64,000 nucleotides of DNA from Escherichia coli. GTDB taxonomy: Bacteria > Pseudomonadota > Gammaproteobacteria > Enterobacterales > Enterobacteriaceae. The DNA is taken from NCBI RefSeq assembly GCF_030013595.1, contig NZ_CP122768.1. The stretch is one strand, 5' to 3'. The position numbers were made by a program, and so were the translations under genes. A model generated the notes under the pieces. The model searched no databases and had not been told where the DNA came from. It saw only the letters and a list, made by a program, of their open reading frames with translations. This document shows positions 8,812-39,792 of the stretch, one piece after another. The number at the start of each line of letters is the position of its first letter. The first letter of the stretch is position 1.

Positions 8812-8876
8812 GACTCCACTGTCAGACGGATGGACGGACTTGAAGTAGTTGACTCAACGCTACTTAAGGTCCTGAT

Positions 8877-10485
8877 ATGACTGACATTAACTATGATAAT
8901 ACTGTATATCCATCCAGCTCTTTCTCTGGGTCTCCCTATCTGTATGGGCAAGTCTACACCTCAAGTCCTGACACAAGGCTGACACAAATCAATCTACTCA
9001 GCGTAGCTAAGCCTCAGTTAGTCCGTAGAGCCAATGGTCGATATACTATCCGCTTCAGACTCAAGGGACAGACCACACCGTTTCTTTCAGTATCGACCCG
9101 AAGCACAGACAGGAGAGTAGCCACAATGCGTCAGAGAGAGCTTGCAGCCACAGCTAAGGCCTTCATGTTGGATAGGCCTGAAGTCTCACTACAGGAGCTT
9201 ACAGAGCATCTCCGGTCTATGGCTGAGCAGTTCCTGACAGACGCTAGTGACGATTACTGGAATGGACTTGAGGTCGCTACTTTGGTGGACGAGAAGTCCA
9301 ACCTGAAGGAGCTAGCCGCTACGCAAGCCTTGAGTCTGGACCAGCAGAAGGGCATAAGGTTAGCGCTTGAAGTCCTGACCGCAGCACAGCAGAGGGTAGA
9401 TACTGGTGATACGTCCAGTCTAATCAAGCTGATTGGTGGTGGCGTAAGCCAGCTTACTGATGGAGATGACAATAACCTTACTAATAACTCAACTATATGC
9501 GACTCTACGTTGATTCTGAGGAACGAGCAGGGGGTCAGCCCGCAAGTATTCACGAGAGAGCGCCAACCATCTGTAGTTTTTTCAAGCCTAGTGTCCTCAC
9601 TGCTGGCTGAGAAGGTCCAGACCCTGAAGTCCTCCAGCTACAAGGACCTGTCGTCCTCACTGAATACCGTCTCTCGGTTTCTGCCTGAAGATATGGACCT
9701 GATGTCCCGCTCTGAGTGGCTGGCAGTGAGGGACGCTATGCTGGCTGCTGAGGTGAGACCATCGACAATCAACAAGCTGCTGACCAAAGCGAAGATGTGT
9801 CTCGATTATGGCCTGATGAATGGGCAACTTGAGGGCCGCAACCCTATTGAACGGATGAAGCTGACCAAGGATACCGACTCCAAGCGCAGAGCGTTCACAG
9901 ACGAGGAGCTGGAGAGACTTCTGGTCCGTGTTGAGGCTGAGTATCAGTTCACACGACACACGGCTCACACGACCTCTGAGGCCCGTAGATGGGCGTCTCT
10001 GGTGTCTGTGGTCACTGGCGCGAGGTCTGCTGAGGTCTGCCACCTGACTAAACGTGACGTTGTAACCTTGGACAATGGACTGGTCTGTATCGACATCAAT
10101 GAAGATGGGGACGGGAAGTCTGTGAAGAACAAACATTCAGTCCGACTTGTGCCGTTAACCGATGGGGCCTGTGGTTTCAGCCTGAAGTCCTTCCTCAAAT
10201 GGGTAGACACTCAGCCTGCTGATGGTCCCCTCTTTGGTATGACTCCGAGTGCCTACTCTAGTTGGTTTAACTCTAGGGTCCTGACTGAGGCCCTAGGAGA
10301 CGCTGAGAACGTTTCTCCACAGTCTGAGACATTGGCTGGCGACCCGAATGAAAGAGCGTGGAGTCAATCTGGTGGACGCTCAAGGCATCTTAGGTCACAG
10401 CAGTCAGTCCATTACGTATGACCTGTACGGGAAAGGACACGCTGTTGGTAGGCTGGCTGAGGTGCTGAAGACAGCTTTACTTTAA
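8877..10485 (+). pseudogene. Tyrosine recombinase (integrase) interrupted by a frameshift; ~535 aa if repaired
   Basis: Frame 1 (8877..10421) carries VTGARSAEV (box I Arg) and KNKHSVRLVPL. The catalytic LHSLRHWLATRMKERGVNLVDAQGILGHSSQSITYDLYGKGH is in the +1 frame and ends at 10485. The shift must lie in 10297..10317, probably the TTT run at 10312-10314. Confidence 0.8.
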
Positions 10486-10581
10486 GTAGGAAGACCCAAG
10501 GTGGAGACCATATACGGCTTGATGGTTGAGACCTTGGGTCACTGAAGTCTGACTGAAGTTAGGGAGGGTGATAATAATCAT

Positions 10582-10604
10582 AATCCCTCCTGACTATAGG
10601 CCCA
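10582..10604 (+). promoter_or_regulatory. Phage single-subunit RNAP promoter look-alike AATCCCTCCTGACTATAGGCCCA
   Basis: A GACTATAGG core resembling the T7 CACTATAGG, directly after the hairpin GGAGGGTGAT..ATCATAATCCCTCC downstream of int. Confidence 0.35.
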
Positions 10605-10645
10605 CTGGTTCGCCTTCGGCTGTCCGACTCTAAGTCTGTCTGTGG

Positions 10646-10777
10646 TCTTATTTAAACTGGTTCCCTAACTCAGGTCCTCCAACTTGGTGTCTTATTTAAA
10701 CTGGTTCCCTAACTCAGGTCCTCCAACTTGGTGTCTTATTTAAACTGGTTCCCTAACTCAGGCCCCTCCAAATTTCG
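10646..10777. repeat. Three tandem 44-bp repeats (TCTTATTTAAACTGGTTCCCTAACTCAGGTCCTCCAACTTGGTG; third copy diverges at its 3' end)
   Basis: Units start at 10646, 10690 and 10734. The first two are identical by eye. Confidence 0.9.
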
Positions 10778-10795
10778 TTGTCTGTCAGCGACTTA

Positions 10796-10818
10796 AATAT
10801 CCCCTCACCTTAGAAGAG
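10796..10818 (+). promoter_or_regulatory. Phage-RNAP-type promoter look-alike ATATCCCCTCACCTTAGAAGAGT (type 1, copy 1)
   Basis: Shares ATAyCCCCTCACywTAG with 11426..11448. Predicted +1 at 10813, followed by GAAGAG as at the SP6 promoter start. Confidence 0.5.
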
Positions 10819-10832
10819 TTTAGGGTTCAGAC

Positions 10833-10855
10833 CCTTAACTATCACCTTAGGAGAG
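10833..10855 (+). promoter_or_regulatory. Phage-RNAP-type promoter look-alike CCTTAACTATCACCTTAGGAGAG (type 2, copy 1)
   Basis: Shares CCCTwAACTATCACywTAGGrGrGA with 11452..11474. Predicted +1 at 10850, 52 nt upstream of the ATG at 10902. Confidence 0.5.
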
Positions 10856-10901
10856 ACGGGCCGTCCTCCACCCAATCAAAACCTTAAGAGGAGGACCATA
10901 C

Positions 10902-11402
10902 ATGGCTATTAAAATTCAGTGCTACACCGAGTCCGACAATGCGGCTTTCTTCGGTGACGATTCCGACCTCCAGCACCAGCTACCAGCACCGACATATGAC
11001 GAACCTAAGGCCCGCACAGGTAAGCCTCCTGTGGTCATCGACAACCGGGCTGTCCGTGCGTGGCTGATTGAGACTGGGTGTCTCTCCTATACGCAGCTTG
11101 TTGAGGCGTACCCGTGGGCTGACGATGTGTTCACAGGACTCTCACGGGCTACCAGTGGCGCTGTCGGTGCTGGACTCCCGGTATCTAAGGCGTACCTGTT
11201 CTCTGCCTTATATGGCACCAACGACATCTTCTCCCGTAACACAGCCAAATCCTACGCTGACATCACTGGGCGTTCACCGTCTCCTCGCTACCTGCGCCAC
11301 GTCAATAGCGTGCTTCAGGCTACGGCTGTGAATCTGGCTAAGGTTCTGAAGGACCGAGGGGATTTCACATGGTGGGATTACAACGATCAGTGCCTGTCCT
11401 GA
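10902..11402 (+). CDS. Hypothetical 166-aa protein, first gene downstream of the tandem promoter-like pair
   Basis: ATG preceded by AAGAGGAGGA. No domain I can recognise. Confidence 0.6.
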   Translation: MAIKIQCYTESDNAAFFGDDSDLQHQLPAPTYDEPKARTGKPPVVIDNRAVRAWLIETGCLSYTQLVEAYPWADDVFTGLSRATSGAVGAGLPVSKAYLFSALYGTNDIFSRNTAKSYADITGRSPSPRYLRHVNSVLQATAVNLAKVLKDRGDFTWWDYNDQCLS

Positions 11403-11425
11403 GAGCCGCGCCAGCTCTGGGCTGG

Positions 11426-11448
11426 AATACCCCCTCACTATAGGGACA
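11426..11448 (+). promoter_or_regulatory. Phage-RNAP-type promoter look-alike AATACCCCCTCACTATAGGGACA (type 1, copy 2)
   Basis: By hand alignment, 18 of 23 positions equal the T3 consensus AATTAACCCTCACTAAAGGGAGA and 16 of 23 equal the T7 consensus TAATACGACTCACTATAGGGAGA. Confidence 0.6.
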
Positions 11449-11451
11449 CCC

Positions 11452-11474
11452 CCTAAACTATCACTATAGGGGGG
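11452..11474 (+). promoter_or_regulatory. Phage-RNAP-type promoter look-alike CCTAAACTATCACTATAGGGGGG (type 2, copy 2)
   Basis: CACTATAGGG core. Its +1 lies 26 bp downstream of that of the previous site, forming a tandem pair like 10796/10833. Confidence 0.55.
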
Positions 11475-11712
11475 ACCAACCTTGCCTCTGCTTCTGATGC
11501 GTCAGAACACGCGAGGTCCTCCCGACATTAAGTATTCTCCTAAGTAATCAAGGCCCGTGACCGCCTCTGACAGACCTCCTGTATCGACCTCCAGCTCGTT
11601 AGCGTTCTTTAGTCGTCTCGGTTAGTAGGTAACCGGCTCATTTAAACCGTCTGGTCTGTTTCCTCCGGCTCTACAAAAATAATGTCCATCATTTTTTAAT
11701 GGACACTATCGT

Positions 11713-12360
11713 ATGAAACACCGGACCTGGATCACTGAAGCTTTACGTCTTCACTTTGAAGAACATTTACCCCGGGTTGTGGCCGGGCGTCGCCTGGGTG
11801 TACCAAAATCAACAGTTTGTAGTATGTTCGTGCGCTTTCGGAGAGCTGGCCTTTCGTGGCCTTTGCCCGCAGGCATGTCGGAGCAGGAACTTGATGCCTG
11901 CCTTTACGGACAATTTTCCACGGTACCAGTCGTACGTCCTGAAAGCACCGTTATATCCGAAGCCCCCGTGGTAAAAAAACGTCCCCGGCGGCCCAACTTC
12001 CCTTATGAGTTTAAAATCGCCTTAGTGGAGCAGTCACTGCAGCCCGGAGCCTGTGTGGCGCAGATCGCCCGGGAAAACGGAATCAACGATAACCTGCTCT
12101 TCAACTGGCGCCATCAATACCGGAAAGGTGGCCTGCTGCCTTCCGGAAAAAATATGCCGGCACTGCTTCCCGTGACGTTAACGCCGGAGCCGGATAATAA
12201 AATCCCGGCCCCCGCACAGGAACCAGAGCAGATAAATACACCGTCCGACAGTCTGTGTTGTGAGCTGGTTCTGCCGGCCGGAACTCTCAGGCTTAAAGGT
12301 AAACTGACGCCGGCGTTATTACAGACACTTATCCGCGAAATAAAAGGGAGCAGCCACTGA
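11713..12360 (+). CDS. tnpA: IS66-family accessory protein TnpA (HTH)
   Basis: 215-aa ORF, first of three. Its stop overlaps the tnpB start (ATGA at 12357-12362). Confidence 0.8.
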   Translation: MKHRTWITEALRLHFEEHLPRVVAGRRLGVPKSTVCSMFVRFRRAGLSWPLPAGMSEQELDACLYGQFSTVPVVRPESTVISEAPVVKKRPRRPNFPYEFKIALVEQSLQPGACVAQIARENGINDNLLFNWRHQYRKGGLLPSGKNMPALLPVTLTPEPDNKIPAPAQEPEQINTPSDSLCCELVLPAGTLRLKGKLTPALLQTLIREIKGSSH

Positions 12361-12707
12361 TGATATCTCTCCCTGCAGGTTCGCGTATCTGGCTGGTTGC
12401 AGGTATCACCGATATGCGAAATGGCTTTAACGGCCTGGCATCAAAAGTTCAGAACGTCCTGAAGGATGACCCGTTCTCCGGACACCTGTTCATCTTCCGC
12501 GGACGCCGGGGTGACCAGATAAAAGTGTTGTGGGCTGACAGTGACGGACTGTGCCTCTTCACCAAACGCCTGGAGCGGGGCCGCTTCGTCTGGCCAGTCA
12601 CCCGTGACGGCAAGGTGCACCTTACTCCGGCTCAGTTATCCATGCTTCTTGAAGGTATCAACTGGAAGCACCCGAAACGAACGGAACGCGCTGGAATCCG
12701 CATATAA
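12360..12707 (+). CDS. tnpB: IS66-family TnpB (Orf2)
   Basis: 115 aa, MISLPAGSRIWLVAGITDMRNGFNGLA..., typical IS66 Orf2. Confidence 0.88.
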   Translation: MISLPAGSRIWLVAGITDMRNGFNGLASKVQNVLKDDPFSGHLFIFRGRRGDQIKVLWADSDGLCLFTKRLERGRFVWPVTRDGKVHLTPAQLSMLLEGINWKHPKRTERAGIRI

Positions 12708-12726
12708 CCCGTTGTAAAGTGAGGAT

Positions 12727-14298
12727 ATGGACACCTCACTTGCTCATGAGAACGCCCGCCTGCGGGCACTGTTGCAGACGCAACAGGACACCATCCGCCA
12801 GATGGCTGAATACAACCGCCTGCTCTCACAGCGGGTGGCGGCTTATGCTTCCGAAATCAACCGGCTGAAGGCGCTGGTTGCGAAACTGCAACGTATGCAG
12901 TTCGGTAAAAGCTCAGAAAAACTTCGTGCAAAAACCGAACGGCAGATACAGGAAGCACAGGAGCGAATCAGCGCACTTCAGGAAGAAATGGCGGAAACGC
13001 TGGGTGAGCAATATGACCCGGTACTGCCATCCGCCCTGCGCCAGTCTTCAGCCCGTAAACCGTTACCGGCCTCACTTCCCCGTGAAACCCGGGTTATCCG
13101 GCCGGAAGAGGAATGCTGTCCTGCCTGTGGTGGTGAACTCAGTTCTCTGGGATGTGATGTGTCAGAGCAACTGGAGCTTATCAGCAGCGCCTTTAAGGTT
13201 ATCGAAACACAACGTCCGAAACAGGCCTGTTGCCGGTGCGACCATATCGTACAGGCACCAGTACCTTCAAAACCCATTGCACGCAGTTATGCCGGAGCGG
13301 GGCTTCTGGCCCATGTTGTCACCGGGAAATATGCAGACCATCTGCCGTTATACCGCCAGTCAGAAATATACCGTCGTCAGGGAGTGGAGCTGAGCCGTGC
13401 CACACTGGGGCGCTGGACAGGTGCTGTTGCTGAACTGCTGGAGCCGCTGTATGACGTCCTGCGCCAGTATGTGCTGATGCCCGGTAAAGTCCATGCTGAT
13501 GATATCCCCGTCCCGGTCCAGGAGCCGGGCAGCGGTAAAACCCGGACAGCCCGGCTGTGGGTCTACGTCCGTGATGACCGTAACGCCGGTTCACAGATGC
13601 CCCCGGCGGTCTGGTTCGCGTACAGTCCGGACCGGAAAGGTATCCATCCACAAAATCACCTGGCCGGTTACAGCGGTGTGCTTCAGGCCGATGCTTACGG
13701 TGGTTACCGGGCGTTATACGAATCCGGCAGAATAACGGAAGCCGCGTGTATGGCTCATGCCCGGAGAAAAATCCACGATGTGCATGCAAGAGCGCCCACC
13801 TACATCACCACGGAAGCCCTGCAGCGTATCGGTGAACTGTATGCCATCGAGGCAGAGGTCCGGGGCTGTTCAGCAGAACAGCGTCTGGCGGCAAGAAAAG
13901 CCAGAGCCGCGCCACTGATGCAGTCACTGTATGACTGGATACAGCAACAGATGAAAACACTGTCGCGTCACTCAGATACGGCAAAAGCGTTCGCATACCT
14001 GCTGAAACAGTGGGATGCACTGAACGTGTACTGCAGTAATGGCTGGGTGGAAATCGACAACAACATCGCAGAGAACGCCTTACGGGGAGTGGCCGTAGGC
14101 CGGAAAAACTGGATGTTCGCGGGTTCCGACAGCGGTGGTGAACATGCGGCGGTGTTGTACTCGCTGATCGGCACATGCCGTCTGAACAATGTGGAGCCAG
14201 AAAAGTGGCTGCGTTACGTCATTGAACATATCCAGGACTGGCCGGCAAACCGGGTACGCGATCTGTTGCCCTGGAAAGTTGATCTGAGCTCTCAGTAA
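12727..14298 (+). CDS. tnpC: IS66-family DDE transposase TnpC
   Basis: 523 aa with N-terminal leucine-zipper-like region, CxxC zinc motif ([12 protein letters not shown]) and DDE core, typical of IS66 transposases. Confidence 0.9.
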
Positions 14299-14582
14299 AT
14301 ATCAATACGGTTCTGACGAGTCGCTTACGTTAGTAGCTCGTCTACTCACTACATTGGCTTAAGTCTATCACCGCTCACCATCTGGAGTCCTTACAGCTCG
14401 TCCTGACATGCGGTCTCACCTTATATGCACATGGAGAACATGGCCACTCCAGACCAACACTAATCAACATTAACCCTATTCACTTTCGTTAAGCATTTTT
14501 TGGTGGGTCCGTTTGGATGCATTGAATAGGTGCGGACTCCACGTGGAGACAGAAAGTGCTTTACTAAAGGAGCATCCTTTAT

Positions 14583-14972
14583 ATGACTATTAAATCCATC
14601 GTTATCAACGGTAAGACCATCCTGTCTACACCTAACGCCATCAATGAGGGTGTCTGGTTCGACATGCTTGAGGTCCATCAAGCTGCTGGCTTGCCTGCTA
14701 ACAAGACGTTCTCACAGTGGCGCAGCCGACAGTCTCGTGCATTAGAAGAGGCTGGAGAGGTGTCGTTTGACAGTGTACAGAAGACCCTGTGTGGCAGCTT
14801 TGTGGCAGTGCTGGCCTACCTTATGTGGGCGGACCTTACTCTCTGGCTGGCGGTGGTTCGTTACGTTGCGTCTGAGACTATCGGCGTCCTGCCTGACCGC
14901 TTCAAGTCTATCGACGGTGATAACCCCGAGTTAGAAATGTCAGAGGATAACAGCGAGTGGGAGGACTTCTAA
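14583..14972 (+). CDS. KilA-N-like domain protein (129 aa) with acidic C-terminal tail ending ...SEDNSEWEDF
   Basis: SD TAAAGGAG. The N-terminus is paralogous to the next ORF (both have GLPA[NS]K..S[QE]W). See finding on the tail. Confidence 0.6.
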   Translation: MTIKSIVINGKTILSTPNAINEGVWFDMLEVHQAAGLPANKTFSQWRSRQSRALEEAGEVSFDSVQKTLCGSFVAVLAYLMWADLTLWLAVVRYVASETIGVLPDRFKSIDGDNPELEMSEDNSEWEDF

Positions 14973-14973
14973 G

Positions 14974-15714
14974 ATGACCATGAGCCAGCTTGAAGCATTA
15001 CCTATCGTCATCGAGGGTCATTCATTCATCTGCAACGACCAGCGCATGTGGAACCTGAACGAGATTCACCGAGTGTTAGGTCTTCCAGCAAGCAAGATGC
15101 CGTCTGAGTGGAATAACAAGATTCGCACACAACTTGACCGCTCCGGAAATTTCCGGACCGTGAATGGTGACGGCGGTGGTACATGGGCGACCGAGGCTGG
15201 GACCGTGGCTTATGCTATGTGGGTCTCTACAGATTTCTACCTGATGGTCATCAATGCTTTCATCTTTATGCGTAACGACGCAATCGTCCGAGAGCGTGTA
15301 GCGGTCAAACAGGCTGACGAGGCTAACGCTAACCTCTCCATCGCAGCACCTAAGGCAGACATCTTTGACGGTCGTCTGACCAATGGTGGCTCTGTTCCGT
15401 GGAACTGGGCGTGTAAATCTTTGGGTCTTGCCCCGATGAAACTGAAAGAGGGCTTGAAGCGCTCCGGTAAGTTCGTCCAGAAGTGGAACCCTGACAGTTA
15501 CGCCGACGAGCTTCGACCTCAGGAGAAGGCGTTCAGTATTGGACTATTCGTCACTAAGTCAGTCATGGGTAAAGACACATGGCAGGTGACAGCTAAAGGC
15601 TACGCATGGATGCAGGGGAACGCCCAGAAGTGGAGAGAGCTAATAGCTGATGGTGACCGCTTAAAGGCTGCTGAGCGTCGAGCACAGAAGCGTCTTAACC
15701 GTGGAGGTAAGTAG
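14974..15714 (+). CDS. KilA-N N-terminal / ANT-like C-terminal (antirepressor-type) DNA-binding protein, 246 aa
   Basis: N-terminal pattern IEGHSF..MWNLNEIHRVLGLPASK..GGGTWATEAGTVAYAMWVS fits KilA-N. The C-terminal LGLAPMKLKEGLKRSGKF...QVTAKGYAWM fits the ANT C-terminal pattern as I remember it. Starts 1 nt after the previous stop. Confidence 0.6.
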   Translation: MTMSQLEALPIVIEGHSFICNDQRMWNLNEIHRVLGLPASKMPSEWNNKIRTQLDRSGNFRTVNGDGGGTWATEAGTVAYAMWVSTDFYLMVINAFIFMRNDAIVRERVAVKQADEANANLSIAAPKADIFDGRLTNGGSVPWNWACKSLGLAPMKLKEGLKRSGKFVQKWNPDSYADELRPQEKAFSIGLFVTKSVMGKDTWQVTAKGYAWMQGNAQKWRELIADGDRLKAAERRAQKRLNRGGK

Positions 15715-15716
15715 TC

Positions 15717-15941
15717 ATGGCTATGATTGACCCTCGTACACCTATCGGCAAAGCGACCCTTCGTTACCGTGGTCTGCCTACACGTCATCTGCTGTCCCTG
15801 CTGAGACTTGGAGTCGAAGACCCCGAACGCCCGTACTACAGTCGAGACGAGCTAATAGCTATGTTGGTGGACCGTGATTTAGACAATCAGTTACGCCGAG
15901 CCTTTGCGAAGTCTAGCGCAGCTAGGGAACTGGAGTCCTGA
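15717..15941 (+). CDS. Hypothetical 74-aa protein
   Basis: ATG 2 nt after the previous stop, SD GGAGGTAAG. No recognisable domain. Confidence 0.5.
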   Translation: MAMIDPRTPIGKATLRYRGLPTRHLLSLLRLGVEDPERPYYSRDELIAMLVDRDLDNQLRRAFAKSSAARELES

Positions 15942-16146
15942 ACCTTATGGGGCAGAAAAACCGCCGCATAAACCTATCGTCTGCTGACCGAAGTTTCGAC
16001 GCATTGAGCCAGACGGAAAAGTTTTCCTGCTGGTAAACCACCTTAATTTAAACACCTTTTGAGAATGACCGATGCGGGGAGACCCGTAGGCATAACTGTG
16101 TCTGCGATACCGATAGTTCTCACCTTCTCAATAGGAGTACTACCTT

Positions 16147-16638
16147 ATGTTATTCAACAACAACGACTGGAAACTATCAGTCACCGACATCAATCCCTAT
16201 GAAAATACTGTGAGTCTGGACGGTCAGTCCTATCCGCTGTCTCTGGCGATTAAGACCCTGATTCCGGGCTACCTGTCAGGCTTACCGTCCACCAGCCGCG
16301 AGGCGATGGAGTTACTGGAAGCTCTGGCTGAAGCTGGCGTGTCCATTGGCAACTTCTTCAGTAATGACCTGATGACCGCCTATGGTCGCCGCCAGCAGAA
16401 CAAGCGAGCCGAAGCTGAGCGTATTGCTAAAGAGCAGCGCATTCAGGCTGAGCGTATGCGTGAAGAGAACATGACTGATGCAGAGTGGCAGAAAGAGCTA
16501 CAGCGCCGTGAACAGGTCAAAGCTGAACGCCGGACCTATGGTGAGCACCTCCGCAGTGCTACCCATTCCGCTGGGCGCTCCCGTGCTTCTATGGTCGCTG
16601 ACATTGAGTCCACGGACAACTGGATGGACAGCCTCTAA
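16147..16638 (+). CDS. Scaffold-like coiled-coil protein (163 aa)
   Basis: SD AGGAG. The charged heptad-like stretch RRQQNKRAEAERIAKEQRIQAERMREENMTDAEWQKELQRREQVKAERR sits immediately upstream of the capsid-like gene. Function is inferred from position and composition only. Confidence 0.4.
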   Translation: MLFNNNDWKLSVTDINPYENTVSLDGQSYPLSLAIKTLIPGYLSGLPSTSREAMELLEALAEAGVSIGNFFSNDLMTAYGRRQQNKRAEAERIAKEQRIQAERMREENMTDAEWQKELQRREQVKAERRTYGEHLRSATHSAGRSRASMVADIESTDNWMDSL

Positions 16639-16713
16639 GACACAGACACACAAGTGGTCCTGACCTGATGTCGGGACCCACAGTATCCAAACTAATTTAG
16701 GAGATTGATTATT

Positions 16714-17700
16714 ATGACGATTAAAGACGCTTTCCAGTTCGGCATTGAGCCAGTACGTATCAGCGACACCGACAACATTCAGATTAACGAAGGTTTGCCA
16801 ACTAACGCAGACCCGCAGGTCTATGCCCTCCAGTTAGCTAAGACGGTTAAGGCTATGCTGAACGGTGTACTTAAAGACGCTCAAGAGAACATCCCGTTCC
16901 CTGTAGAAGTCCTGCCGACCCGCAATAGCCTGCCTACTCCAATCATTGCTCACACTCTGGCTGATCGCTCTGTGGTCGTTCCTGTCCGTGGTGGTAAGCG
17001 ACCTGAAGTCGTGACCGTTCCGTCTGGACAAGAAATCGTGGTCGAACCAATCGAGCAGGCTATTCTCATCTCTGAGCAGACCAAGCTCTGGGACGCCAAG
17101 TCATCCACCGGATTCACTCAGGGCACACTTCAGCAGGACGCTATGAACATCTGTGAGAATGTGGTCCGTACCATCAACGCTCGCATGGTCGACGTTCTGG
17201 AGTCCTCCAAACTGTTGAAGACCGTAGAGCTGCCAGTCCTGACTGGAAGCCTGACCACTAAGGCAGACGCTATCATGGACGCTCTGTTTGAGAACACCGA
17301 GTCCTCTTTCGGCTCTGAAGTGTCTGATTACGGCATCATCGCCCATGAGTCCCAACTGAAAGCGCTGTCCCGTCTGGCAGCTAAACAGGGCTTCTCTGGT
17401 GGAGACGCTATCGTGGATATGCTGGGTACCGACATCGCCTATTACAACGGTGAAGACAAGGGTGTATTCATGCTGGCTAAACGCTTCACGGCCCTGAGCT
17501 TCGGCTGCTTCCGTCACGACGGTGAGAATATTACGGTCGTCCTTTCACGTGATGGCGACTCTCAGTCCCACGACTTGGAAATCCTCGGTAAAGTGTTCGT
17601 TGTCGCTGAAGCTGCTACGACCATCAAGATGGGCACTGGCTCAGCTACTGCCGTCCTGCCTGTAGTCAAACGCCTGAAGTTCACCAAGACCGAAGCGTAA
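16714..17700 (+). CDS. Putative HK97-fold major capsid protein (328 aa)
   Basis: ATG at 16714 after TAGGAG. Size and the C-terminal pattern (GIIAHESQLKAL...MLGTDIAYYNGEDKGVFMLAKRFTALSF...ITVVLSRDGDSQSHDLEILGKVFVVAEAA) resemble HK97-type coat proteins. No obvious similarity to T7 gp10 by eye. Confidence 0.45.
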   Translation: MTIKDAFQFGIEPVRISDTDNIQINEGLPTNADPQVYALQLAKTVKAMLNGVLKDAQENIPFPVEVLPTRNSLPTPIIAHTLADRSVVVPVRGGKRPEVVTVPSGQEIVVEPIEQAILISEQTKLWDAKSSTGFTQGTLQQDAMNICENVVRTINARMVDVLESSKLLKTVELPVLTGSLTTKADAIMDALFENTESSFGSEVSDYGIIAHESQLKALSRLAAKQGFSGGDAIVDMLGTDIAYYNGEDKGVFMLAKRFTALSFGCFRHDGENITVVLSRDGDSQSHDLEILGKVFVVAEAATTIKMGTGSATAVLPVVKRLKFTKTEA

Positions 17701-17844
17701 GACCAATGGGTAAGAGGTAAGTCTGGACTGAATATCAGCAGGACTTCAGGTGGTGGCCTGTCACTGTGATTAACTAACTACGGTCTGGACCAATGGTCTG
17801 GGCCTTATTACTGGTATGGTAGTATACAGGCGAAGGAGGACCCA

Positions 17845-18000
17845 ATGTCTATGACTTCCGCAGACCTAAGGTCCCTCCTGACTCTGGTCTATAAACTCGT
17901 GTTCCTCTCTGTGGGTCTCTACATGGTTCTCTCTGGTCGACTCGGTGTGGATGTGTTCGACACTCTGTCTAAGGCTGTGGGTGGACTTCTAGGTCCTTAG
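17845..18000 (+). CDS. 51-aa hydrophobic peptide (one or two TM segments)
   Basis: Not in the ORF track (<60 aa). ATG at 17845 preceded by GAAGGAGGA. MSMTSADLRSLLTLVYKLVFLSVGLYMVLSGRLGVDVFDTLSKAVGGLLGP. Confidence 0.45.
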   Translation: MSMTSADLRSLLTLVYKLVFLSVGLYMVLSGRLGVDVFDTLSKAVGGLLGP

Positions 18001-18241
18001 GTTTGGACTCACAGTGGGACCGATGATTTCTGACAGAAAAATGTGAATGACCATCTAATACATTAAGCCAGCAGACTTCCCCCCATAGTCCCGCCTCAAG
18101 TCCAGACCGAGGCCACCGGGGGTCCTGACCAGCCGTCTAGACATCCCGTCTAATGACACAAGTCTGGCACAAAGCCTGACACAAAGTCCTTGACTCAATG
18201 CAGGACCTCAGGCCTACTAAGGGTCCGCTTCAAGTCCTTGA

Positions 18242-25011: not shown

Positions 25012-25831
25012 ATTAATTTTTCATTGCTTCGTTATGGGGCATGGTTGGGGCAAACTCGCTTAACTGTGTATTTAACAAAGCTACCTGTGCATTATTGTTT
25101 TCAGACATCCATTTTCCGTATACCTGAAATACCATTTGCGCATCTGCATGGCCCATCTGGTTTGCTATAAATGCCGGGTTAGCACCAGCTGTCAGCGACC
25201 AGCAGGCATAAGTATGTCTCGACTGATATGATTTTCGATGGCGGAGTCCGGCACGTTTTATCGCTGCGTCCCACATCTGCCTTATTGAGTCAACGGTAAA
25301 ATGGTCACCATAATTTTTTACTCTCGCTGACACTTCAGGTTGAAAAACAAAGGTGCATTTATGTTTTTCTGTTCTGCCATACTCTCTGAGGTGAACATCA
25401 ATGATATGCTCTTTGCTCAGTCTCGTTAATGTCATCTGACTCCGGAGAGCGTCGATTGCTGGCTTAATAAGATGAATGACCCGATTGGTTCCCGCCTGTG
25501 TTTTTGGTACCGTGAAACGGTCTTTTGCTAAATTTCTCCTGATCATCATTGTTCCATTTTTCAGATCTATGTCCTCCCATCCAAGTGCACACAGCTCACC
25601 AGGGCGAACGCCAGTATAAACAGAAACACACCATAAATTTTTGGCTTGCTGATTTCTGCACGCATCGATAAGACGGATGAATTCCTCCCGCGAAAGAGGA
25701 TCCGGAATGGTTCTTGATTCCTTTAATGGCGAGATCCCCTTAAACGGGTTATCTGCCAGGTAACCGTTATCAACACCAAACTGGAACACGGCGTTAAGAT
25801 TGTAAGCGACTCGTCAGAACCGTATTGATAT

Positions 25832-27403
25832 TTACTGAGAGCTCAGATCAACTTTCCAGGGCAACAGATCGCGTACCCGGTTTGCCGGCCAGTCCTGGAT
25901 ATGTTCAATGACGTAACGCAGCCACTTTTCTGGCTCCACATTGTTCAGACGGCATGTGCCGATCAGCGAGTACAACACCGCCGCATGTTCACCACCGCTG
26001 TCGGAACCCGCGAACATCCAGTTTTTCCGGCCTACGGCCACTCCCCGTAAGGCGTTCTCTGCGATGTTGTTGTCGATTTCCACCCAGCCATTACTGCAGT
26101 ACACGTTCAGTGCATCCCACTGTTTCAGCAGGTATGCGAACGCTTTTGCCGTATCTGAGTGACGCGACAGTGTTTTCATCTGTTGCTGTATCCAGTCATA
26201 CAGTGACTGCATCAGTGGCGCGGCTCTGGCTTTTCTTGCCGCCAGACGCTGTTCTGCTGAACAGCCCCGGACCTCTGCCTCGATGGCATACAGTTCACCG
26301 ATACGCTGCAGGGCTTCCGTGGTGATGTAGGTGGGCGCTCTTGCATGCACATCGTGGATTTTTCTCCGGGCATGAGCCATACACGCGGCTTCCGTTATTC
26401 TGCCGGATTCGTATAACGCCCGGTAACCACCGTAAGCATCGGCCTGAAGCACACCGCTGTAACCGGCCAGGTGATTTTGTGGATGGATACCTTTCCGGTC
26501 CGGACTGTACGCGAACCAGACCGCCGGGGGCATCTGTGAACCGGCGTTACGGTCATCACGGACGTAGACCCACAGCCGGGCTGTCCGGGTTTTACCGCTG
26601 CCCGGCTCCTGGACCGGGACGGGGATATCATCAGCATGGACTTTACCGGGCATCAGCACATACTGGCGCAGGACGTCATACAGCGGCTCCAGCAGTTCAG
26701 CAACAGCACCTGTCCAGCGCCCCAGTGTGGCACGGCTCAGCTCCACTCCCTGACGACGGTATATTTCTGACTGGCGGTATAACGGCAGATGGTCTGCATA
26801 TTTCCCGGTGACAACATGGGCCAGAAGCCCCGCTCCGGCATAACTGCGTGCAATGGGTTTTGAAGGTACTGGTGCCTGTACGATATGGTCGCACCGGCAA
26901 CAGGCCTGTTTCGGACGTTGTGTTTCGATAACCTTAAAGGCGCTGCTGATAAGCTCCAGTTGCTCTGACACATCACATCCCAGAGAACTGAGTTCACCAC
27001 CACAGGCAGGACAGCATTCCTCTTCCGGCCGGATAACCCGGGTTTCACGGGGAAGTGAGGCCGGTAACGGTTTACGGGCTGAAGACTGGCGCAGGGCGGA
27101 TGGCAGTACCGGGTCATATTGCTCACCCAGCGTTTCCGCCATTTCTTCCTGAAGTGCGCTGATTCGCTCCTGTGCTTCCTGTATCTGCCGTTCGGTTTTT
27201 GCACGAAGTTTTTCTGAGCTTTTACCGAACTGCATACGTTGCAGTTTCGCAACCAGCGCCTTCAGCCGGTTGATTTCGGAAGCATAAGCCGCCACCCGCT
27301 GTGAGAGCAGGCGGTTGTATTCAGCCATCTGGCGGATGGTGTCCTGTTGCGTCTGCAACAGTGCCCGCAGGCGGGCGTTCTCATGAGCAAGTGAGGTGTC
27401 CAT
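25832..27403 (-). CDS. tnpC: IS66-family DDE transposase TnpC (copy 2)
   Basis: 523 aa, identical to 12727..14298. Confidence 0.9.
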
Positions 27404-27422
27404 ATCCTCACTTTACAACGGG

Positions 27423-27770
27423 TTATATGCGGATTCCAGCGCGTTCCGTTCGTTTCGGGTGCTTCCAGTTGATACCTTCAAGAAGCATGGATAACTGAGC
27501 CGGAGTAAGGTGCACCTTGCCGTCACGGGTGACTGGCCAGACGAAGCGGCCCCGCTCCAGGCGTTTGGTGAAGAGGCACAGTCCGTCACTGTCAGCCCAC
27601 AACACTTTTATCTGGTCACCCCGGCGTCCGCGGAAGATGAACAGGTGTCCGGAGAACGGGTCATCCTTCAGGACGTTCTGAACTTTTGATGCCAGGCCGT
27701 TAAAGCCATTTCGCATATCGGTGATACCTGCAACCAGCCAGATACGCGAACCTGCAGGGAGAGATATCAT
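27423..27770 (-). CDS. tnpB: IS66-family TnpB (copy 2)
   Basis: 115 aa, identical to 12360..12707. Confidence 0.88.
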   Translation of the reverse strand: MISLPAGSRIWLVAGITDMRNGFNGLASKVQNVLKDDPFSGHLFIFRGRRGDQIKVLWADSDGLCLFTKRLERGRFVWPVTRDGKVHLTPAQLSMLLEGINWKHPKRTERAGIRI

Positions 27771-28417
27771 CAGTGGCTGCTCCCTTTTATTTCGCGGATA
27801 AGTGTCTGTAATAACGCCGGCGTCAGTTTACCTTTAAGCCTGAGAGTTCCGGCCGGCAGAACCAGCTCACAACACAGACTGTCGGACGGTGTATTTATCT
27901 GCTCTGGTTCCTGTGCGGGGGCCGGGATTTTATTATCCGGCTCCGGCGTTAACGTCACGGGAAGCAGTGCCGGCATATTTTTTCCGGAAGGCAGCAGGCC
28001 ACCTTTCCGGTATTGATGGCGCCAGTTGAAGAGCAGGTTATCGTTGATTCCGTTTTCCCGGGCGATCTGCGCCACACAGGCTCCGGGCTGCAGTGACTGC
28101 TCCACTAAGGCGATTTTAAACTCATAAGGGAAGTTGGGCCGCCGGGGACGTTTTTTTACCACGGGGGCTTCGGATATAACGGTGCTTTCAGGACGTACGA
28201 CTGGTACCGTGGAAAATTGTCCGTAAAGGCAGGCATCAAGTTCCTGCTCCGACATGCCTGCGGGCAAAGGCCACGAAAGGCCAGCTCTCCGAAAGCGCAC
28301 GAACATACTACAAACTGTTGATTTTGGTACACCCAGGCGACGCCCGGCCACAACCCGGGGTAAATGTTCTTCAAAGTGAAGACGTAAAGCTTCAGTGATC
28401 CAGGTCCGGTGTTTCAT
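27770..28417 (-). CDS. tnpA: IS66-family TnpA (copy 2)
   Basis: 215 aa, identical to 11713..12360. Confidence 0.8.
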   Translation of the reverse strand: MKHRTWITEALRLHFEEHLPRVVAGRRLGVPKSTVCSMFVRFRRAGLSWPLPAGMSEQELDACLYGQFSTVPVVRPESTVISEAPVVKKRPRRPNFPYEFKIALVEQSLQPGACVAQIARENGINDNLLFNWRHQYRKGGLLPSGKNMPALLPVTLTPEPDNKIPAPAQEPEQINTPSDSLCCELVLPAGTLRLKGKLTPALLQTLIREIKGSSH

Positions 28418-29035
28418 ACGATAGTGTCCATTAAAAAATGATGGACATTATTTTTGTAGAGCCGGAGGAAACAGACCAGACGGTTTAAATGAGCCGGTTA
28501 CTTAAGATTTGTCATGTAATTATTTACAGTTACAGCCGATCTACCTGGTTGTGTAACAATATAGTTACTTTTGGGGCTCTGGTATCCAGTCAGTAGCTCT
28601 TTACGAACCTCCAGTAATTTTTCTTTATTAATCGATGAGGCAAGATTTTTTTCACCGATTATGCTCAGGATATTTTTGATGACGGCACGGTATGTGTTGA
28701 GTGATGTTTTTGCGACTTCAGTTTCTTTCAGTGCCAGAAATTTTTCAGCCAGTTCTTTTATGGTTAAATCTTGTCGGGTCTCACCAAATTTTTCCAGATT
28801 GCGTGAGGAGGGAAACTGTTTTGCATAGTCGAAAACACCAGTTTTTATTGCGTAACAAACAGAGGCGCGTAGCTCACCTGCAACGCGCCTGTTTTTTGCT
28901 GTGTCAGGAACCCCCAGGTTTTCCCTGACTCTTACGCCTTTATAAACAAACCAGATACGTAATTTCCCTCCATGGTTTTCCACGCCTGTCGGATATTTCA
29001 TTTCAACTTCTCTCATTAGTTAGTGTGGCTTTTAG

Positions 29036-38451: not shown

Positions 38452-39792
38452 ATGATCAAAGAGACTGTTACGATGAGTCATAAGGAACTCCACCGACTTC
38501 AGATTATTCAGGAGTCAATTAATCGACATATTACTCAGGAACAAGCTGCGGCACGCATTGGCATTTCTATTCGGCAGGTTAAACGTCTGGTGCAACGGTA
38601 TAGAAATGAAGGGCCTTCTGGTCTGGTTTCCCACCGACGTGGAAAGCGTCCTAATAATTCCTTTTCTACTGAATTCAGAGCAACAGTAATTTCACTCCTC
38701 AAAGGCCGTTACGCTGATTTTGGACCTACGTTTGCGTGCGAAAAATTGCGCGAGATACACGGTTTATCTTTATCCGTTGAAACTCTCAGAAAGTGGATGA
38801 TAGAAGAGGGGTTATGGCGTGAACGCCGTCGTAAAATTGCCCGTATATATCAACGCCGCATGCGACGACCATCTTACGGTGAACTGATCCAGATTGATGG
38901 CTCACCTCATGACTGGTTTGAAAATCGAGGCCCCAGATGTACACTGATCGTTTTCATTGATGATGCCACCAGTGCGTTGATGGCGTTGCGTTTTGTGCCT
39001 GCTGAAACAACCCGGGCTTACATGGAAACCCTCCGGGGTTACCTTAATGATCATGGCGTACCGCTCGCTCTCTACTCTGATAGACACAGTATATTCAGGG
39101 TAAATAACCCAGAGCGGGAAGGTGAGCTGACCCAGTTCACTCGTGCGATAAAGACACTGGGCATCGAGCCAATCCATGCCAACAGCCCGCAGGCAAAAGG
39201 GCGGGTAGAGCGCGCCAATCAGACACTACAGGACAGGCTGGTCAAAGAAATGCGGCTTCAGAATATCAGTGATATTGAAACAGCAAATGCATGGTTGCCG
39301 ACCTTTATTGAAGCCTATAACAACCGGTTCGCTACGTCGCCTCGTACTACTGATAATGCTCATCTTGATGAGCACCATTCTGAAGAGGAACTGGGTTATA
39401 TCTTCAGCCTACAGGCGAAGCGCGTTCTGTCTAAAAATCTCACTTTCCAGTACAAAAGCAGTGCGTTTCAGGTACGCAGTGAGGGCCGGGGATATCGACT
39501 TAGGCATTCGGTTGTTACTGTATGCGAGAACTTTGACGGTGAAATTAACGTTCTGTATGACGGGAAAGCGCTGGGCTGGGAAAAGTATGTTGATGGCCCG
39601 GAGCCTATACCACTGGATGATGAAAAGAGTGTCCATGAACGAGTGGATAATGCCCGTATTGATTTACGCTCAAAATACTATGTTAAACCTAAAGCTGACC
39701 ATCCCTGGCTTACGCGCCGAACGCAAAGTCATCAGCAAGTTAAGCCCCCGAAGTTACCTAAAAAGAAGCCTGATCCCGATAAAAAAGATTGA
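38452..39792 (+). CDS. rve (DDE integrase-core) transposase with N-terminal HTH, ISNCY/IS1202-group-like
   Basis: HTH ITQEQAAARIGISIRQVKRLVQRYRNEG, then a core with LIQIDGSPHDWF...LYSDRHSIF...AKGRVERANQTLQDRL. The IS ends are not confidently defined. Confidence 0.75.
   Translation: MIKETVTMSHKELHRLQIIQESINRHITQEQAAARIGISIRQVKRLVQRYRNEGPSGLVSHRRGKRPNNSFSTEFRATVISLLKGRYADFGPTFACEKLREIHGLSLSVETLRKWMIEEGLWRERRRKIARIYQRRMRRPSYGELIQIDGSPHDWFENRGPRCTLIVFIDDATSALMALRFVPAETTRAYMETLRGYLNDHGVPLALYSDRHSIFRVNNPEREGELTQFTRAIKTLGIEPIHANSPQAKGRVERANQTLQDRLVKEMRLQNISDIETANAWLPTFIEAYNNRFATSPRTTDNAHLDEHHSEEELGYIFSLQAKRVLSKNLTFQYKSSAFQVRSEGRGYRLRHSVVTVCENFDGEINVLYDGKALGWEKYVDGPEPIPLDDEKSVHERVDNARIDLRSKYYVKPKADHPWLTRRTQSHQQVKPPKLPKKKPDPDKKD

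Follow-up and report, generated by a model that had tools for sequence, protein, structure and literature searches.

A covarying RNA leader, interrupted by IS66, probably follows the tandem phage promoters of a candidate T7-like phage satellite in Escherichia coli

The window analysed here, 64,000 nucleotides (nt) of the E. coli contig NZ_CP122768.1, carries a small island in which no gene is evident between the stop codon at 11402 and the ATG at 14583, apart from an insertion sequence (IS) that bisects the interval. What does the island keep in this gap, directly behind two phage-type promoters? A first-pass annotation had seen in it a possible T7-type replication origin or packaging region. 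Our analysis indicates instead that the region is probably the promoter-proximal non-coding 5′ RNA leader that heads the late operon in a small, helper-dependent island, and that this island, from its sequence features, is likely a satellite of Kayfunavirus-type T7-like phages.

That the gap is non-coding and about 470 bp long, as first annotated, is borne out. Rejoining its flanks without the IS leaves 472 bp, and uninterrupted alleles of this form occur in many E. coli genomes. Among 22 diverse homologues, 24 of the 27 distinct indels have lengths not divisible by 3, the variable sites lack 3-nt periodicity (46/51/48), and the longest stop-free stretches shift in frame and position. Homologous islands were searched for a conserved open reading frame (ORF) across the region, which the first-pass annotation had named as evidence contrary to its proposal, and none was found; nor is a gene annotated in the leader in any RefSeq copy inspected. 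A conserved small ORF, such as one for an MRQ... peptide that begins within the loop of the first hairpin described below, was considered and rejected, as its frame varies by variant and most indels are non-triplet.

The sequence is conserved all the same. Of 5426 complete E. coli genomes, 166 carry the leader, with identities of 66–97%, and homologues extend to Shigella, Leclercia, Citrobacter, one Buttiauxella metagenome-assembled genome and 45 metagenome contigs, with the homologous islands occupying at least three integration sites. The ~400 nt located 3′ of the promoters form a conserved mosaic, built from invariant blocks with modules between them that have been exchanged or lost. At three integration sites and in five genera, the invariant blocks persist while adjacent segments fall to 66–75% identity. 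At 11522–11533 on the + strand, for instance, a 40-sequence alignment reveals the nearly invariant block CCGACATTAAGT, then an anti-Shine-Dalgarno-like TCTCC. The CCTCC repeats pointed out earlier are present; they represent in part a lineage-specific 13-nt duplication, GACCTCCTGTATC, and in part the 5′ side of helices.

Which polymerase would transcribe this region? The two tandem promoters at its upstream edge, both on the + strand, prove to be genuine helper-phage promoters, with full-length matches to K1F/ST38 and GW1-type promoters. The first, recovered by a regular-expression scan at 11427–11448 (ATACCCCCTCACTATAGGGACA, ...ACCCCCTCACTATAGGGACA, ...CCCCCTCACTATAGGGA), is of the GW1/Dev2/SH4 type; its core ACCCTCACTATAGGGA recurs 2–3 times per ~39.7-kb phage genome, including that of Cronobacter phage GW1, whose relatives sharing ACCCTCACTATAGGGA-type promoters include Dev2, SH4/SH5 and SFP21B. 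The second, at 11453–11475 (CTAAACTATCACTATAGGGGGGA / CTAAACTATCACTATAGGG), is of the K1F (Kayfunavirus) type, with its predicted +1 at the first G following TATA. Specifically, it is identical to several K1F promoters at 19/19 nt, shares a 19-nt identity with ST38 promoters too, and matches the promoter before the capsid gene of the Salmonella Kayfunavirus ST38 at 26/27 positions. The 11-mer YCACTATAGGG occurs at two sites in the window, both of them these promoters, a count that alone is not significant (30/100 shuffles); the significance of the promoters derives from the full-length phage matches and from the homologous islands. In 14 homologous islands, such promoters are restricted to the + strand and to two intergenic gaps. 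The first member of the pair differs in specificity among islands (CCCTCAC, GCACTCAC, ACCCACAC, ACACCTCAC), and the second is always K1F-type. The two promoters thus appear, by these matches, to represent two Kayfunavirus-like polymerase specificity groups (K1F; GW1/Dev2/SH4).

No polymerase gene was found in the promoter-bearing islands, and no sigma-70-like promoter or terminator in the IS-free leader. In a BLAST comparison of the IS-free leader and the non-coding segments of two other islands with 50,697 phage records, promoters were the only matches. The degenerate promoter pieces noted earlier downstream of the IS do not survive inspection, none being a promoter: AAGTCTATCACC keeps positions −12 to −5 of a K1F-type promoter, lacks TATAGG and abuts a helix strand (the 3′ strand of H4, below), and ATTAACCCTATTCACTTTCG includes strand a of a pseudoknot. 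Small IMG/VR contigs bearing CCCTCACTATAGGGA (L116, L120, L128) were considered as island forms and rejected as unrelated.

A first pair of promoters, at ~10800–10850, carries the CACCTTAGG variant, which in K1F and ST38 stands in front of the primase-helicase gene; this leaves the second pair as the consensus, late-type one. By this reading of promoter sequence, the island seems to be organised as one middle-type and one late-type transcription unit. Further upstream, a 28-nt hairpin, GGAGGGTGATAATAATCATAATCCCTCC, at 10563–10590 is identical at 27/28 positions to a hairpin ~110 nt 3′ of phiOR in ST38, and at 22/24 positions to K1F 38985–39008.

The placement of the leader, on the coding strand between a promoter and a ribosome-binding site and devoid of an ORF of its own, raises the question of whether its RNA is structured. 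RNAalifold and explicit pair counts define 27 pairs in five helices, scored in 22 sequences. The 5′-proximal helix H1 is an interrupted hairpin at 11483–11513 (+; core TCTGA-TGCG-TCAGA at 11493–11506), whose 10 pairs are 100% paired in the 22 sequences; two of them switch UA↔CG and CG↔UA, a third form reads CCUGA/UCAGG, and H1 is also kept in short-leader islands. The middle domain has its 5′ strands at 11559–11564 (H2), 11591–11594 (H3) and 11598–11604 (H4), and its 3′ strands at 14372–14378 (H4), 14382–14385 (H3) and 14410–14415 (H2), all on the + strand. H2 is a long-range helix around ~140 nt, within which H3 and H4 close a variable apex. Pairs changed on both sides number 5/7 in H4, which is known in three mutually compensating versions, 2/4 in H3 and 1/6 in H2 (CG↔AU in 7 sequences).

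These helices exceed what shuffled alignments provide. The proportion of paired cells is 95.3%, compared with 88.0 ± 0.6% in shuffles, and two-sided changes affect 10/27 pairs, compared with 5.6 ± 1.4; 0/500 shuffles reach either observed value. The covariation score is 0.249 against 0.116 in shuffles, and sliding the partners by 1–3 columns leaves 27–35% of cells paired. In line with this, the folding energy of the whole leader is better than that of shuffles (z = −2.26). The GC-rich helices begin 16 nt past the +1. Rfam 15 contains no matching leader family, either at gathering thresholds in three islands, where only the flanking tRNA was hit, or at E ≤ 5 in the IS-free leader.

The 3′ leader module, at 14475–14561 (+), adopts an H-type pseudoknot, as identified by a covariance model and compensatory forms. 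In particular, strand a (14475–14482) pairs with a′ (14523–14530), which is located in the loop of a stem formed by b (14491–14500 / 14552–14561) and c/d (14503–14511 / 14533–14542). Helix a exists in three compensatory forms, CCUAUUCA/UGAAUAGG, CCAAUUCA/UGAAUUGG and CCAUUCA/UGAAUGG, and both base swaps and paired deletions of 1 nt leave it intact. The b/c/d stem, a hairpin of ~19 bp, is irregular and contains internal loops, and the pseudoknot as a whole (~90 nt) stops 5 nt before the Shine-Dalgarno (SD) sequence of the first cargo gene (AAAGGAG at 14566–14572; the element with the ATG at 14583 spans 14566–14585, +), which encodes 129 aa. The covariance model matches 23 loci (E 7e-34 to 5e-26) and found nothing in K1F or ST38. 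The same pseudoknot topology recurs in a second sequence family, unrelated in appearance, on a different cargo gene, and the type of the 3′ module tracks cargo type among islands, as expected for a cis-acting 5′ untranslated region.

Taken together, these features suggest how the region would work. The RNA polymerase of an infecting phage would start at one of the two adjacent consensus (class III-type) promoters, according to its specificity group. A leader of ~400 nt would be made and would fold in the 5′ to 3′ direction into H1, the long-range H2–H4 domain and the ~90-nt pseudoknot. From its placement and fold we infer that the leader acts as RNA, most likely by protecting and/or processing the transcript and by setting translation of the variable cargo gene, and the transcript would continue into two conserved genes downstream, the 163-aa ORF (ORF163) and the capsid protein gene.

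Several points weigh against this proposal. The helices were derived from the same sequences that were used for testing them, and much of the variation was brought in by recombination of whole blocks, so that the covariation statistics count more independent events than there were. The middle domain is not essential, because islands L009, L024, L025 and L061 are without it. Pairing alone does not account for the near-invariant blocks GCCTCTG (twice), CCGACATTAAGT, AGTCTATC and CTGACATGCGGTC, which could be sites that act at the protein or DNA level. That a helper polymerase would transcribe the region is judged from sequence, the fold may serve to stabilise the RNA, to guide RNase III processing, to control translation or to prime, and a role as leader is compatible with an origin role of the promoters. 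A more sweeping objection is that the region has no function, being a decaying spacer of phage scraps conserved by recent common ancestry. Its mosaic structure, its many indels, the tolerated IS insertion and the half-promoter relics AAGTCTATCAC would fit such a spacer. Invariant blocks that persist beside strongly diverged segments at different sites and in different genera do not, and neither do the compensatory changes in five helices and the pseudoknot, and we give this explanation very little credence.

How has the IS affected this leader? The element was correctly placed in the first pass at 11629–14328 (+), as confirmed by its ORFs, inverted repeats and 8-bp target-site duplication, GTTAGTAG, which flanks it at 11621–11628 and 14329–14336. 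It is an ISCro1-like member of the IS66 family and encodes tnpA (11713–12360), tnpB (12360–12707) and the transposase (12727–14298), all on the + strand; identical proteins in the related genome NZ_AP042706 are annotated as IS66 TnpA, TnpB and ISCro1-family transposase. Its assignment to the IS66 family follows from this tnpA-tnpB-transposase order, from ends that are imperfect, GTAA-starting inverted repeats (GTAACCGGCTCAT / GTAAGCGACTCGT) and from the 8-bp duplication. The insertion is recent, because a second copy at 25802–28501 (−), with its own 8-bp duplication TTAAGATT, is 100% identical. The segment GTTAGTAG...CACTAC, into which it inserted, is an indel-variable apical stretch that many homologues are without. 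IS66 thus cuts the middle RNA domain in two where its apex varies, and the 5′ strands (11559–11604) now lie 2.7 kb from the 3′ strands (14372–14415). A transcript of the window copy would therefore contain the two halves of H2–H4 far apart and three transposase genes inside its leader. The IS also stands between the promoters and the downstream genes, as noted in the first pass. T7-type polymerases usually read through host terminators, and for this reason we infer that IS66 may weaken expression rather than abolish it.

Could the gap serve DNA replication rather than, or in addition to, RNA-level control? In a T7-type origin, transcripts from the tandem promoters would prime the helper DNA polymerase, with the RNA-to-DNA transition and the loading of the helicase-primase on the leader DNA, and replication would be supplied wholly by the helper. 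The part of this proposal that holds is the two tandem phage promoters at the upstream edge, as in T7 phi1.1A/1.1B; the island ORFs scanned match no replication-protein family, and an origin is compatible with the leader explanation. Moreover, T7 is stated to replicate, package and transduce plasmids carrying a T7 origin, a packaging (pac) site and a terminal repeat, in the account that PMC13236587 gives with reference to Chung & Hinkle 1990; of these three, the pac site and the terminal repeat have counterparts elsewhere in the island. The AT-rich block and any similarity to the T7 or K1F origins, on the other hand, are absent. The stretch previously called AT-rich is unremarkable, at ≤57% AT in 40-nt windows there; the leader overall is 49.8% AT, with 40-nt windows at 40–57% directly after the promoters and at 35–60% in the first 250 nt, compared with 78% over ~70 nt after phi1.1B in T7. 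Comparison of the leader with the T7 and K1F origin regions yields no similarity (z 0.3–0.4), and its pattern of conservation is that of a base-paired RNA. The primase pentamers GGGTC/TGGTC/GTGTC number 4 in 472 nt on both strands, below the island average of 6.2, a measure that is non-discriminating, as the T7 origin segment itself has 1. The first promoter pair, next to a tandem repeat, is at least equally origin-like. An origin in the gap is therefore unlikely, if well worth keeping in mind, and it is possible that the promoters themselves prime helper-dependent replication. The repeat in question comprises 2.9 copies of a 44-bp unit at 10645–10771 (97% matches), lies just 5′ of the first promoter pair and is iteron-like; in some metagenome copies (e.g. 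L028) additional overlapping matches may mean more units.

The second function proposed in the first pass, a pac region, would have the helper terminase recognise the leader, perhaps together with a paused polymerase, as at the T7 concatemer junction. Phage-promoter transcription crosses the region, the 10-mer CTCTGAGTCT, present in IS-free homologues, is the same as the final bases of the terminal repeat of K1F (GTCTCTGAGTCTC / TATCTGTATCAGACC boundary), and a second leader motif, GCCTCTGTCAGACC, resembles ATCTGTATCAGACC. A 10-mer match of this kind is expected many times by chance, however, and the window copy reads CTCTGCTTCT there instead. Aligned by Smith-Waterman to the ends of K1F, ST38, T7 and T3, the leader shows no significant match (best z = 3.1), and short-word BLAST of the leader against the ends and origins of the same four phages gave nothing significant. 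The class II pause signal ATCTGTT does not occur in the IS-free island, the leader having only CCATCTGG. A stronger and longer homologue of a phage end lies elsewhere, at 18004–18178, in every variant examined. A packaging role of the gap is accordingly not supported, and we consider it highly improbable.

This other site is a mimic of the Kayfunavirus concatemer junction, consisting of the flank preceding the terminal repeat and the 5′ part of the repeat (18004–18178, +), and was detected by Smith-Waterman alignment. It scores z = 11.4 against K1F and z = 13.8 against ST38, and no shuffle reaches the score (0/500; 100-shuffle rerun). Its counterparts in nine other island variants, making 10 variants in all, have z values of 4–18. 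The mimic is located just inside the right attachment site (attR), 3.5 kb downstream of the leader, and reads ACCA|TCTAATACA, where the phages read ACA|TCTCACAGT, their left genome end. By this resemblance it is likely the packaging site of the island. In two islands, L007 (4640–4990, z 6.4–7.7) and L006 (4710–5010, z 4.0–4.7), the segment between the promoter pairs resembles the short-repeat region that follows the left terminal repeat of K1F/T7 and includes tandem GACTCTAAGTAAGACTGAAGTTAA units. As regards size, IS-free islands measure 6.6–6.9 kb (the window counterpart being ~8860–18190 minus the IS), so that six island copies amount to ~39.6–41 kb, compared with the Kayfunavirus genome size (K1F, 39,704 bp); this may be a coincidence or a concatemer-packaging constraint.

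What would be packaged, and into which shell? The 329-aa ORF at 16711–17700 (+) is, by structure prediction, an HK97-fold major capsid protein. A model from a shallow alignment was unusable (predicted local distance difference test, pLDDT, 40), and a deep alignment combined with fold search resolved the fold: AlphaFold2 gives pLDDT 82.7 and a predicted template-modelling score (pTM) of 0.77, and every one of the top 50 Foldseek matches (E from 2.5e-9) is the capsid shell of a phage or an encapsulin shell. Sequence searches found no match for this protein in Pfam, PHROGs or the PDB, and profile comparison with Kayfunavirus gp10 was empty. Its remote homologues bear C-terminal immunoglobulin domains. 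The capsid gene is the most conserved island gene, with 95–100% identity in 5 aligned E. coli copies and 69–95% among database clusters, and the 163-aa ORF just upstream (16147–16638, +) could encode a scaffold for the capsid protein. The helper-dependent island of the first-pass annotation thus stands as far as satellite hallmarks are concerned, namely an integrase, attachment (att) sites, phage promoters without an RNA polymerase gene, the HK97-fold capsid gene and the terminal-repeat mimic; this gap as packaging site and the AT-rich origin do not. Evidence of a free island form was sought among metagenome contigs: those of 6.6–6.9 kb stop at the att sites, lack terminal repeats and so provide none, and two related IMG/VR matches (L020, L022) come from contigs of 16–73 kb, which are not island-sized.

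A capsid protein of its own also lends some interest to an entirely different role of the leader, that of a trans-acting interference RNA. Here the leader, or a piece of it, would pair with helper mRNAs, for example at the start of scaffold gene 9, and bias assembly towards the island capsid. The segment CCGACAUUAAGU...UCUCC (window 11522–11545) is complementary to the start region of K1F gene 9 at 18/19 positions with one gap, and gene 9 ranks first of 43 K1F translation starts for three leader variants (−24 to −27 kcal/mol). Genome-wide in K1F, however, other windows pair equally well or better for 2/3 leader variants, so that gene 9 is no outlier; in ST38, gene 9 ranks 1st, 3rd and 2nd for the three variants. 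An anti-SD-like run pairs with any strong ribosome-binding site, and the BLAST E value of the gene 9 match is only 0.06–0.24, even against two phage genomes. Interference in trans is thus doubtful in the extreme, if marginally less so than a pac site or an idle spacer, and a cis-acting leader remains the preferred explanation.

The ~6.6-kb island interrupts ynfE of the E. coli chromosome, with gene halves on both sides, and all its listed genes are on the + strand. Besides those described above, it carries the integrase gene (8877–10421), the 166-aa ORF directly 5′ of the gap (10902–11402), and two cargo genes, the 129-aa ORF (14583–14972) and a gene for a KilA-N/ANT-domain protein (14974–15714). 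The cargo slot (14583–15941 in the window, and homologues) varies among islands, holding 129 aa + KilA-N, an AP2-domain protein, a Rha-like regulator, or 171- and 166-aa hypothetical proteins, and is a variable-cargo hotspot between the conserved 5′ domain of the leader and the conserved capsid module. A small ORF (17846–18001) with a strong ribosome-binding site encodes a hydrophobic peptide of ~51 aa; it follows the capsid gene and precedes the terminal-repeat mimic, a position resembling that of gene 19.5 of T7-group phages. In some islands at tRNA-Gly and other sites (L008, 4470–4990; also L009, L011, L012, L013 and L015), a conserved non-coding segment of ~550 nt replaces the 166-aa ORF between the promoter pairs, and is probably a further polymerase-driven RNA.

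How does this locus relate to elements already described? In 2006, Chen and Schneider reportedly described integrase-bearing islands in E. coli, Shigella and relatives with clusters of 2–3 T7-like promoters and no polymerase gene, in which no structural proteins are known to have been recognised; the window island fits these tandem T7-like promoter islands. In the literature found, a capsid fold, a terminal-repeat mimic, the K1F/GW1 promoter assignment and the leader RNA structure are not described. No functional follow-up of these islands turned up in the searchable literature, and a search for T7-like satellites yielded nothing beyond that paper, Nucleic Acids Res 2006;34:1133, PMC1380254. 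The leader is best explained as a new RNA, with covarying helices, carried by one island of a family that is already known though experimentally unstudied. A bolder and distinctly speculative extension, which we regard as less likely than the leader role itself and only a little more likely than an origin, is that it represents a new class of RNA regulator: dual promoters would sense two Kayfunavirus polymerase lineages, and the leader domains would time capsid translation, act in trans on helper assembly genes, or prime replication. Together with the capsid gene and the mimic, the island would then be the first satellite of T7-like virulent coliphages described in the literature found, with an RNA switch at its centre.

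Either way, what had been a blank region of 2006-type islands now holds two promoters assignable to phages and a covarying leader with a new pseudoknot, with a capsid gene and a terminal-repeat mimic nearby. In annotation, the gap should not be labelled an origin or a pac site, and the window copy should be marked as broken by an IS66 that inserted recently. Should these parts become active on infection by a helper, E. coli and its relatives would harbour a widespread satellite of strictly virulent T7-like phages, present in ~3% of complete E. coli genomes. This would matter for horizontal transfer and for therapy that uses K1F-type phages, and would offer natural, orthogonal control elements responsive to a polymerase.

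Compared with the T7 primary origin, the gap has in common two closely spaced, co-directional phage promoters heading a non-coding stretch. Unlike that origin, which is ~78% AT over ~70 nt, the leader is ~50% AT with GC-rich helices early on, and the two share no sequence similarity. Like T7 phagemids, the island carries phage promoters and a junction/terminal-repeat homologue, the latter outside the leader, and by analogy it looks like a natural version of a T7-transducible plasmid.

The closest parallels to the leader itself are the mRNA leaders and RNase III processing hairpins of the T7 group (the phi10 leader; the R0.3 stem-loop annotated in T3), where a structured RNA likewise follows a phage promoter and precedes a ribosome-binding site. 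Just 5′ of the SD, the b/c/d stem resembles RNase III sites of this group. In contrast to those leaders, the present one is ~400 nt long, contains a long-range domain and a pseudoknot, and has no sequence similarity to phage leaders.

Among satellites, the PICMIs (phage-inducible chromosomal minimalist islands) of virulent phages are packaged as concatemers, according to the description in PMC10803314. Like PICMIs, P4 and capsid-forming phage-inducible chromosomal islands (PICIs), the island is a small integrase-bearing element with few genes, and its sequence makes it appear similarly dependent on a virulent helper. This candidate satellite encodes one HK97-fold capsid protein and no terminase or portal. 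Distinct from PICMIs, P4 and PICIs, it would be controlled by promoters for the helper polymerase rather than by a repressor/antirepressor switch.

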